Below, piece by piece: positions 14,572-17,500 of a DNA stretch of 64,000 nt; positions within the stretch are counted from its first letter, which is position 1, and every line of letters begins with the position of its first letter. A model generated the notes under the pieces. The model was not told the DNA's origin. It searched no databases and was given only the letters and a program-made list of their open reading frames with translations. Source of the stretch: Pristiophorus japonicus. Its lineage: Eukaryota. Location: assembly GCF_044704955.1 (NCBI RefSeq), contig NC_091991.1, positions 178,684,001 to 178,748,000 on the forward strand, given 5' to 3'. Made by a program: the position numbers and the translations under genes.

Positions 14572-17500
14572 ACATAGAAACATAGAAAACATAGAAACTA
14601 GGTGCAGGAGCAGGCCATTCAGCCCTTCTAGCCTGCACCGCCATTCAATGAGTTCATGGCTGAACATGAAACTTCAGTACCCCTTCCTGCTTTCTCGCCA
14701 TACCCCTTGATCCCCCGAGTAGTAAGGACTTCATCTAACTCCTTTTTGAATATATTTAGTGAATTGGCCTCAACAACTTTCTGTGGTAGAGAATTCCACA
14801 GGTTCACCACTCTCTGGGTGAAGAAGTTTCTCCTCATCTCGGTCCTAAATGGCTTACCCCTTATCCTTAGACTGTGACCCCTGGTTCTGGACTTCCCCAA
14901 CATTGGGAACATTCTTCCTGCATCTAACCTGTCTAAACCCGTCAGAATTTTAAACGTTTCTATGAGGTCCCCTCTCATTCTTCTGAACTCCAGTGAATAC
15001 AAGTCCAGTTGATCCAGTCTTTCTTGATAGGTCAGTCCCACCATCCCGGGAATCAGTCTGGTGAATCTTCGCTGCACTCCCTCAATAGCAAGAATGTCCT
15101 TCCTCAAGTTAGGAGACCAAAACTGTACACAATACTCCAGGTGTGGCCTCACCAAGGCCCTGTACAACTGTAGCAACACCTCCCTGCCCCTGTACTCAAA
15201 TCCCCTCGCTATGAAGGCCAACATGCCATTTGCTTTCTTAACCGCCTGCTGTACCTGCATGCCAACCTTCAATGACTGATGTACCATGACACCCAGGACT
15301 CGTTGCACCTTCCCTTTTCCTAATCTGTCACCATTCAGATAATAGTCTGTCTCTCTGTTTTTACCACCAAAGTGGATAACCTCACATTTATCCACATTAT
15401 ACTTCATCTTTTTTTTTTTGAAATTCGTAGCCAATCGTTCCAATTCTTTGTCAAATCACAAACGCCAGAGGTCACCTTGGGCCCATTCAAGGATCACTCT
15501 GCGCCAATGCTCTTAGCCAAAAGGCCTAGAGCCACTGCACCGTTCCTGGAAGTACTGCAATACCAGGTTCGTGCCATGGAGGTGGATGGGTCAAGCCACC
15601 CCACCCACCTCCTGTTTCCAAAAAAGCAAGCATATACCTTCCTGATCCAGGGAGAACCACCCGGAGGTCATGGTGGCTACTCCCCTGTCAGGTCAGTTAC
15701 GCATGATCTTAGCCAAAATGCACATTATACTTCATCTGCCATGCATTTGCCCACTCACCTAACCTATCCAAGTCACTCTGCAGCCTCATATCATCCTCCT
15801 CGCAGCTCACACTGCCACCCAACTTCGTGTCATCCGCAAATTTGGAGATACTTCATTTAATCCCCTCATCTAAATCATTAATGTACAATGTAAACAGCTG
15901 GAGCCCCAGCACAGAACCTTGCGGTACCCCACCAGTCACTGCCTGCCATTCTGAAAAGTACCCATTTACTCCTACTCTTTGCTTCCTGTCTGACAACCAG
16001 TTCTCACTCCACGTCAGCACACTACCCCCAATCCCATGTGCTTTAACTTTGCACATTAATCTCTTGTGTGGGACCTTGTCGAAAGTCTTCTGAAAGTCCA
16101 AATATACCACATCAACTGGTTCTCCTTTGTCCACTTTACTGGAAACATCCTCAAAAAATTCCAGAAGATTTGTCAAGCATGATTTCCCTTTCACAAATCC
16201 ATGCTGACTTGGACCTATCATGTCACCATTTTCCAAATGCGCTGTTATGACATCCTTTAATAATTGATTCCATCATTTTACCCACTACTGAGGTCAGGCT
16301 GACCGGTCTATAATTCCCTGTTTTCCCTCTCCCTCCTTTTTTAAAAAGTGGGGTTACATTGGCTACCCTCCACTCGATAGGAACTGATCCAAAGTCAATG
16401 GAATGTTGGAAAATGACTGTCAATGCATCCGCTATTTCCAAGGCCACCTCCTTAAGTACTCTGGGATGCAGTCCATCAGGCCCTGGGGATTTATCGGCCT
16501 TCAATCCCATCAATTTCCCCAACACAATTTCCCGACTAATAAAGATTTCCCTCAGTTCCTCCTCCTTACTAGACCCTCTGACCCCTTTTATATCCGGAAG
16601 ATTGTTTGTGTCCTCCTTAGTGAATACTGAACCAAAGTACTTGTTCAATTGGTCTGCCATTTCTTTGTTCCCCGTTATGACTTCCCCTGATTCTGACTGC
16701 AGGGGACCTACGTTTGTCTTTACTAACCTTTTTCTCTTTACATACCTATAGAAACTTTTGCAATCCGCCTTAATGTTCCCTGCAAGCTTCTTCTCGTACT
16801 CCATTTTCCCTGCCCTAATCAAACCCTTTGTCCTCCTCTGCTGAGTTCTAAATTTCTCCCAGTCCCCAGGTTCGCTGCTATTTCTGGCCAATTTGTATGC
16901 CACTTCCTTGGCTTTAATACTATCCCTGATTTCCCTAGATAGCCACGGTTGAGCCACCTTCCCTTTTTTATTTTTACGCCAGACAGGAATGTACAATTGT
17001 TGTAATTCATCCATGCGGTCTCTAAATGTCTGCCATTGCCCATCCACAGTCAACCCCTTAAGTATCATTCGCCAATCTATCCTAGCCAATTCACGCCTCA
17101 TACCTTCAAAGTTACCCTTCTTTAAGTTCTGGACCATGGTCTCTGAATTAACTGTATCATTCTCCATCCTAATGCAGAATTCCACCATATTATGGTCACT
17201 CTTCCCCAAGGGGCCTCGCACAATGAGATTGCTAATTAGTCCTCTCATTACACAACACCCAGTCTAAGATGGCCTCCCCCCTAGTTGGTTCCTCGACATA
17301 TTGGTCCAGAAAACCATCCCTTATGCACTCCAGGAAATCCTCCTCCACCGTATTGCTTCCAGTTTGGCTAGCCCAATCTATGTGCATATTAAAGTCACCC
17401 ATTATAACTGTTGCACCTTTATTACATGCATCCCTAATTTCCTGTTTGATGCCCTCCCCAACATCACTACTACTGTTTGGAGGTCTGTATACAACTCCCA

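Follow-up and report, generated by a model that had tools for sequence, protein, structure and literature searches.

A young U2/U1 mosaic retroposon family whose RNA fold appears to be under selection and whose fixed stem-loop IV may bind U2B''/U2A'

Retroposons built from spliceosomal RNAs have been described in crocodilians, whose SINEU-1, -2 and -3 families are short poly(A) elements composed of U1 and U2 pieces (Kojima 2015, PMC4494074). That report describes repeated addition of snRNA pieces at the 5′ end, an internal U-tract, subfamilies defined by their U1 heads and tandem insertions, and a Tx1-type LINE is suspected there as the mover. The families are reported only from crocodilians and are targeted to a Mariner element; their mode of transcription is left open, and the accessible part of the text contains no analysis of RNA structure or protein recruitment and does not take up the question of why snRNA pieces are retained (PMC4494074). 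Our literature search, outside which lay Repbase, Dfam and subscription journals, found no analysis of an snRNA-headed SINE using snRNP proteins. Exploitation of a host RNP has been described for Alu, which keeps the SRP9/14-binding domain of its parent RNP. This short structured domain matters, and both the binding and its purpose, namely, ribosome association and ORF2p capture, have been shown (PMC11760393). Keno and Utopia are LINEs that target U2 genes (PMC4640811).

A mosaic of U2 and U1 pieces

The window analyzed here is a stretch of 64,000 nucleotides. It holds, on the minus strand like every feature given below, a 311-bp retroposon copy (15410..15720) that ends in poly(A), is truncated by ~14 nt at its 5′ end and carries a single SL III equivalent; in most full-length relatives this hairpin is duplicated. 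Identical 17-base sequences on either side (5′ copy, 15721..15737; 3′ copy, 15393..15409) form a target-site duplication (TSD). The insertion lies in a decayed LINE reverse-transcriptase (RT) region (14800..16400, extending further) with RT-like frames, stops and frameshifts on both sides, which we take by resemblance to be CR1-like. The U1/U2-derived head, the length below 500 bp, the poly(A) and the 17-bp TSD are all features of SINEU elements.

From 5′ to 3′, the element consists of a U2 head, U1 nt 3-50, U1 nt 28-39, a U2 segment running from the Sm site through SL III to SL IV, a second U2 SL I, a tail hairpin and poly(A). Alignment to host U2 assigned the head (15698..15718) to U2 nt 15 to ~35, i.e., the 3′ part of U2 SL I and a cut, altered branch-site hexamer. 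The U1 nt 3-50 piece (15648..15697) agrees with host U1 at 39 of 51 columns. A second, duplicated U1 piece (nt 28-39; 15636..15647), identical to the host at 11 of 12 positions, supplies the 3′ arm of an outer helix, and the extended U1-derived hairpin (15641..15692) buries the 3′ part of the 5′-splice-site-pairing sequence. Downstream follow the U-tract of the U2 Sm site (15620..15625), with C in place of A before it, the SL III equivalent (15578..15612), from which the bulges have been removed, and SL IV (15537..15574; loop, 15550-15562). The second U2 SL I (15509..15532) matches host U2 nt 4-29 at 22 of 26 positions and has two new pairs, and the nested tail hairpin (15461..15505), which has a variable inner loop, was duplicated from the short hairpin of a sister family.

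A DNA search of the 5.9-Gb genome returned 1,615 candidates, and all 40 that were scored were 97-100% identical over nearly their full length. Exact patterns for SL IV and for the tail had 6,052 and 5,240 matches, respectively, with 0 and 52 for the controls. The retroposon is thus one copy of a young, non-autonomous U2/U1 mosaic family of ~6,000 members. Together with recurring module haplotypes, these exact matches show that the family spread from master copies and not as independent chimeric retrocopies. With a strict script, TSDs of 7-22 bp were found in 65 of 120 family copies. Pieces of U1 and U2 were added repeatedly at the 5′ end, with extra U2 heads in copies L005 and L341 and a longer U2 head in a form with 227 copies. 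Since 40 random 10-kb stretches contained one partial copy, too few for analysis, we sampled copies by two exact patterns. Rfam gave no match in the window at gathering threshold. In a search of sequencing runs, one run of a second organism carried 0.20 of the element's words; the runs listed included no RNA run, making the search uninformative on expression.

By anatomy, the family is a variant of the SINEU kind, likened by description, and probably has a separate origin. That it traces to its own genome's U1 and U2 via host-like ancestral forms points to this separate origin. Unlike the crocodilian families, copies in this shark genome sit behind U2 promoters, and their tail is different in kind. 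Tandem copies are frequent (L161/L162, L012, L021, L029, L174-L176), each split by the same TSD, as if one site had been hit repeatedly. One copy, L283 (G000:C1:50395700-50397300), has four A-to-G changes within ~25 nt of SL IV, as pre-insertion RNA editing would give.

Hairpins and the changes in source elements

A preliminary description of this locus had proposed that the SL III, SL IV, tail and U1 SL I hairpins are preserved, and all of them were found in place and folded. The whole element folded with a z score of -4.3, and none of 100 shuffles folded as well. Folding confirmed the SL III equivalent as a 13-bp stem with one G.U pair and a 9-nt loop, unlike host U2 in sequence; its energy was -26.4 kcal/mol, compared with -15.1 kcal/mol for the bulged, weaker host SL III. 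The extended U1-derived hairpin reached -28.4 kcal/mol, versus -18.3 kcal/mol for host U1 nt 8-56. The upper stem of SL IV with its 13-nt loop gave an Rfam U2 alignment of 39.1 bits (E 2e-6), under the gathering score of 46.

For comparison, host U2 and U1 genes were fetched (30 loci each). The element's U1 SL I pairs as proposed and has been extended, but its lower half is inherited from host U1, as the same lower pairing is common to all 30 host U1 genes. The reservation that the species' own genes might already read like the element therefore held only for part of SL I; the SL III, tail and SL IV-loop sequences were absent from host genes. A form lacking 7 nt of the U1 5′ arm had re-formed a 9-bp helix. 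Tandem G.A pairs are possible in the tail's 4x4 internal loop, whose 5′ strand is nearly fixed (123 of 124 copies), making this internal loop a candidate recognition site for a protein or an RT.

Because an individual copy decays neutrally once inserted, selection can be seen only in the changes that source elements have undergone. For two patterns we took all places listed on contig 1, which gave 124 family copies and 6 from the sister family (130 in total). Changes found in 3 or more copies were scored as shared and the remainder as rare, with CpG transitions set aside. Stems were defined on the commonest forms. SL IV was unparsed in 3 copies and SL III in 19 units, the unparsed SL III forms being, on inspection, for the most part shortened or old versions in which pairing is kept.

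Among the 124 family copies, stems had 8 shared and 65 rare changes at 160 sites, whereas the loops of U1 SL I, SL III and the tail had 27 and 35 at 26 sites, and other unpaired parts had 32 and 41 at 101 sites. Shared changes thus avoided stems relative to both the three free loops (p 2e-5) and the other unpaired parts (p 1e-5), values that count lineage events from few, recombining source elements and so not fully independent ones. Rare changes were far more evenly spread over stems and loops than shared ones (p ~1e-5). A parser-free repeat with RNAfold masks gave p values of 9e-5, 0.002 and 0.056 for the stem deficit with three reference copies; for the two significant ones, shifted masks were as extreme in 0 of 339 and 5 of 340 cases.

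The nature of the changes differed as well. Seven of the eight shared stem changes kept the pair and one broke it, whereas 34 of the 65 rare ones broke it and 31 kept it. The concern that substitutions might break stems as often as loops therefore needs qualification: about half of the rare stem changes in single copies disrupt a pair, and only source-lineage changes avoid doing so. The contrast between kept and broken pairs fades at the 3-copy threshold (p 0.057) and vanishes in the tail-pattern subset (p 1). Shared transitions in Watson-Crick pairs all led to G.U on the sense strand (11:0 at >=2 copies, 6:0 at >=3), compared with 16:11 among rare transitions, which points to the RNA as the strand concerned. 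Two A-U pairs of the tail changed to G-C by way of G.U, and 28 of 29 copies of an old lineage keep both of these changing pairs as A-U, G.U or G-C. Covariation across copies had been suggested as a check, and on 31 tail haplotypes the classical form of this test was not significant (41 of 500 shuffles reached the score), because the changes pass through G.U.

Pairs have also been lost in lineages: the second SL III has a fixed U.C mismatch, the old SL III lost its apical G-C pair, and, compared with the host, the lower stem of SL IV is missing one pair. For the stem deficit, neither 30 sister copies (p 0.13) nor 25 additional old-lineage copies (p 0.74-0.79) reached significance. These two samples could be taken to favor an explanation without selection, in which hairpin loops in transcribed source elements are hypermutable and template switching from one arm to the other repairs or perfects the stems. 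Rare changes are indeed denser in free loops than in stems (6.2 and 3.3 per 1,000 at the 2-copy threshold, with 3.3 in other unpaired parts), so that free loops may carry some added mutation bias; moreover, several loop changes are multi-base, and the stems are more perfect than any host function needs. However, unpaired parts other than loops also change more than stems, and, on the sense strand only, G.U pairs survive and new ones have formed, whereas copying from one arm to the other would eliminate them. In addition, the largest loop, that of SL IV, has no shared change, yet acquires rare ones at the same rate as other loops (5.9-7.4 per 1,000). We therefore regard the absence of selection as very unlikely. 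The contrast between shared and rare changes upholds the earlier proposal of selection on RNA structure: the fold has very probably been under selection in the source elements. The natural subfamily series acts as a mutagenesis screen, showing which parts have to stay paired and pointing to a single 13-nt loop.

The SL IV loop and a role for U2 proteins

The 13-nt loop is that of SL IV, for which retention of the U2B''/U2A'-binding sequence had been noted. The data agreed, with no shared and 9 rare changes in 118 parsed copies, and the same result was obtained with 98 copies picked by the tail pattern alone, blind to SL IV. The modal loop is present in 93% of copies, compared with 29-50% for other loops. 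The lack of shared change had a p of 0.0003-0.011, or 0.002-0.02 when each loop haplotype was counted once; overall, we place the p for fixation at ~0.01-0.02. A search with the loop unconstrained returned an identical loop in 96 of the first 100 of 5,737 matches, the other 4 being singletons, and 27 of 29 old-lineage copies carry the family's loop. The two 4-nt loops of U2 SL I likewise have no shared change, but they are short, and the head is renewable from U2.

Loop positions 1-8, the U.U closing pair and the upper stem are as in vertebrate SL IV, whose conservation has been described as protein-driven (PMC4114683). At loop positions 9 and 10, the family has the vertebrate consensus (PMC4114683) and that of the Rfam line, and host U2 differs from it there. 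In the sister family (30 copies), the loop has changed only at positions 7, 9 and 10; the ancestor of U2B'' was insensitive to positions 7 and 9 (PMC4114683). The difference at positions 9 and 10 also means that the loop cannot be refreshed from present U2 genes. Refreshment of SL IV from host U2 was rejected directly, as none of 28 matches within one mismatch paired host context with the family loop.

Given selection on the fold, these sequence patterns make it likely that the SL IV loop is bound by U2B''/U2A'. U2B''/U2A' is abundant and binds the isolated hairpin. Alternatively, the fold may have been selected because it serves the LINE machinery or simply resists nucleases, and the LINE's ORF1 or ORF2 protein or another factor may read the SL IV loop, with no spliceosomal protein involved. 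This would account for selection on stems in parts without snRNP role, such as the tail and the perfected and duplicated SL III. Furthermore, a LINE resident in the U2 arrays (see below) has RNA-binding domains in its ORF1 protein that could read SL IV, and its anatomy suggests that transcripts of the LINE arising from a U2 gene could themselves terminate in the 3′ domain of U2. We nevertheless consider this alternative rather unlikely, since the abundance of U2B''/U2A' and its binding to the isolated hairpin speak against it, as does the agreement with the vertebrate consensus at the two positions where host genes differ, and the fixed positions are those conserved for U2B'' recognition in vertebrates (PMC4114683).

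What binding of SL IV might achieve is suggested by U2 genes lacking stem IV, which yielded very low RNA levels and rarely met Cajal bodies, loss of U2B'' being suggested as one cause (PMC2196410). We propose that source elements are selected for their fold and that the SL IV loop likely binds U2B''/U2A', stabilizing the RNA for pickup by a LINE RT, a scenario to which we give a somewhat better than even chance on the present sequences. A source copy behind a U2 promoter would make a capped RNA, which would fold into stable hairpins. Its SL IV would be bound by U2B''/U2A', and the benefit would be stability for long enough to meet the RT. The surviving RNA would then be reverse transcribed from its poly(A) by an L1/Tx1-type machine, in keeping with the TSDs of 7-22 bp. 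As for the U2-resident LINE as mover, it shares a junction with the SINE, but they have no common tail, and the targets of dispersed copies are not U2-like. If the proposal is true, spliceosomal proteins join SRP9/14 as host factors exploited by a SINE, which like Alu would keep the protein-binding domain of its parent RNP. Unlike in Alu, binding is here deduced from sequence patterns, the partner would be nuclear, and, of the two, only Alu has a known link to the ribosome. The fixed loop provides a sharp, testable lead on the success of snRNA-derived SINEs.

Other snRNP proteins had been suggested as partners too. U1-70K binds the conserved 10-nt loop of U1 SL I. In the element this loop is the most decayed part, differing from host U1 at 6 of 10 positions and forming 10 recurring haplotypes in 64 copies, so that recruitment of U1-70K, as judged from the sequence, is unlikely. 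At the Sm site, 69 of 69 copies retain the U-tract, but the A is present in 21 and missing from 48, including the window copy, and ~125 nt follow SL IV in that copy, whose SL IV stem-loop is thus not 3′-terminal. Gemin5 reads this A together with a 3′-terminal stem-loop (PMC5143419). The window copy thus lacks the snRNP code of an Sm-class RNA, and recruitment of Sm proteins cannot be upheld as a general feature of the family.

These observations bear on full mimicry of an snRNP, in which RNA from a U2 promoter would be exported, loaded with an Sm ring and U2B''/U2A', re-imported and delivered to Cajal bodies by the U2 arrays. Such a route fits the lack of shared change in both U2 SL I and SL IV, the universal U-tract, and the fact that the 21 copies with the Sm-site A belong to the two forms that include U2-array copies; moreover, association of U2 genes with Cajal bodies needs stem IV and snRNP traffic (PMC2196410). 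The 48 copies without the A read by Gemin5 and the internal position of the stem-loop (PMC5143419) argue against it, as do the targets of dispersed copies, which are unlike the U2 site, and we regard full mimicry as quite improbable. A related possibility, which we also doubt, though less strongly, is that the retroposon is a decoy U2 snRNP. Born from a U2 promoter, it would keep SL I and SL IV, bind U2B''/U2A' together with, in certain subfamilies, an Sm ring, and use the export-import route to meet the LINE RT and return to the nucleus. SL I and SL IV would then be kept as the two parts of U2 linked to the stability of the RNA and to association with Cajal bodies (for stem IV, see PMC2196410). 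If true, this would be the spliceosomal counterpart of Alu's use of SRP9/14 and would account for the repeated origin of U2-derived SINEs among vertebrates.

Splice-site-pairing sequences and the U2 arrays

The preliminary description had contrasted the conserved hairpins with alteration of the sequences that pair with splice sites. The alterations themselves are real: the U1 9-mer (15689-15697) matches the host at 8 of 9 positions, i.e., it has changed at 11% of its bases, compared with 12 of 51 columns for the surrounding U1 piece, and the branch-site hexamer is cut in this copy. The changed base is fixed, with 97 G, 2 A and 1 host-type base in the first 100 of 1,769 matches, and the substitution is a single ancestral event. 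The hexamer is whole in 6 of 66 family heads, in 227 copies genome-wide and in 21 of 23 heads of the sister family. U1 position 6 is a purine in each of its two lineage states, both in 15689-15697 and in related copies, so that the segment reads like a branch-site consensus; this likeness is probably due to chance, and the nearest AG is too near for a normal 3′ splice site.

It had been suggested that these changes serve to avoid interference with splicing, in that selection removed the splice-site-pairing parts so that the RNA does not poison splicing. An intact U1 9-mer occurs in none of the 66 family heads, and no family copy has one among the first 100 genome matches, the sole intact match having the host loop. 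The U1 piece, moreover, lies hidden within a stem, and in a positional test the 3′ arm of SL IIa was missing from each of the 24 sister copies extending that far. In crocodiles and their relatives, SINEU-3 also has an internal U2 deletion (PMC4494074), and mutant U2 can be dominant-negative (PMC2196410). However, the U1 change amounts to one base of nine in one event, in a piece that is internal and so placed unlike in U1. The full hexamer has been regained in the 227-copy subfamily and is held by most sister heads, and the cut in U2 coincides with a LINE insertion site. Selected disarming is therefore unlikely, and the claim that these sequences were altered to spare splicing was not supported. 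Most simply, the lost branch-site and altered U1 sequences are by-products of mosaic building.

The insertion site became apparent in the U2 arrays, which harbor a full-length LINE of 5.7 kb. Its ORF1 (581 aa) has two ZCCHC3-type RNA-binding domains and a zinc knuckle, and its ORF2 (1,147 aa) has an APE-type endonuclease and an RT. U2 nt 37/38 is where both this LINE and one form of the SINE end; they start at U2 +1 behind the promoter. The hexamer, being U2 nt 33-38, lies where these elements join U2, which accounts for its loss. We picked 20 stretches for such inserts; of the 120 U2 heads in them, 13 continue into the SINE and 7 continue into the LINE. The SINE copies in the arrays are near-identical and may derive from one insertion. 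With its APE and RT domains, its residence in its own genome's U2 genes and a 3′ junction like that of the SINE copies there, the LINE resembles Keno and Utopia (PMC4640811), a Keno-like label that rests on domain content and target. The SINE's tail resembled the LINE no more than shuffled sequences did (58 and 8 of 100 scored equally well), and a U2-like target for dispersed copies was rejected, as 120 copies match it at 1-7 of 10 bases (mode, 2-3).

The sister family has 630 exact tail matches, and its forms L362, L369 and L389 consist of a near-whole U2, another U2 head that breaks off immediately behind the branch-site hexamer and a short hairpin tail. An old lineage with 130 matches, of which 29 of 30 loci were real, links the sister family to the young forms.

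In the resident LINE (L312 [G000:C1003:16500-24400], L319 and L322-L324), the U2-derived head differs from the host at nt 34 and 39, which flank the insertion site; these changes could shield the LINE against the endonuclease it encodes. Of the two, the nt 39 change also occurs in the 227-copy SINE form. Finally, a second type of U2 gene, with an altered SL IV stem and a spacing of 14-40 kb (L059, L060 and L328, contig 9), stands beside the type found in 770-bp tandem arrays.
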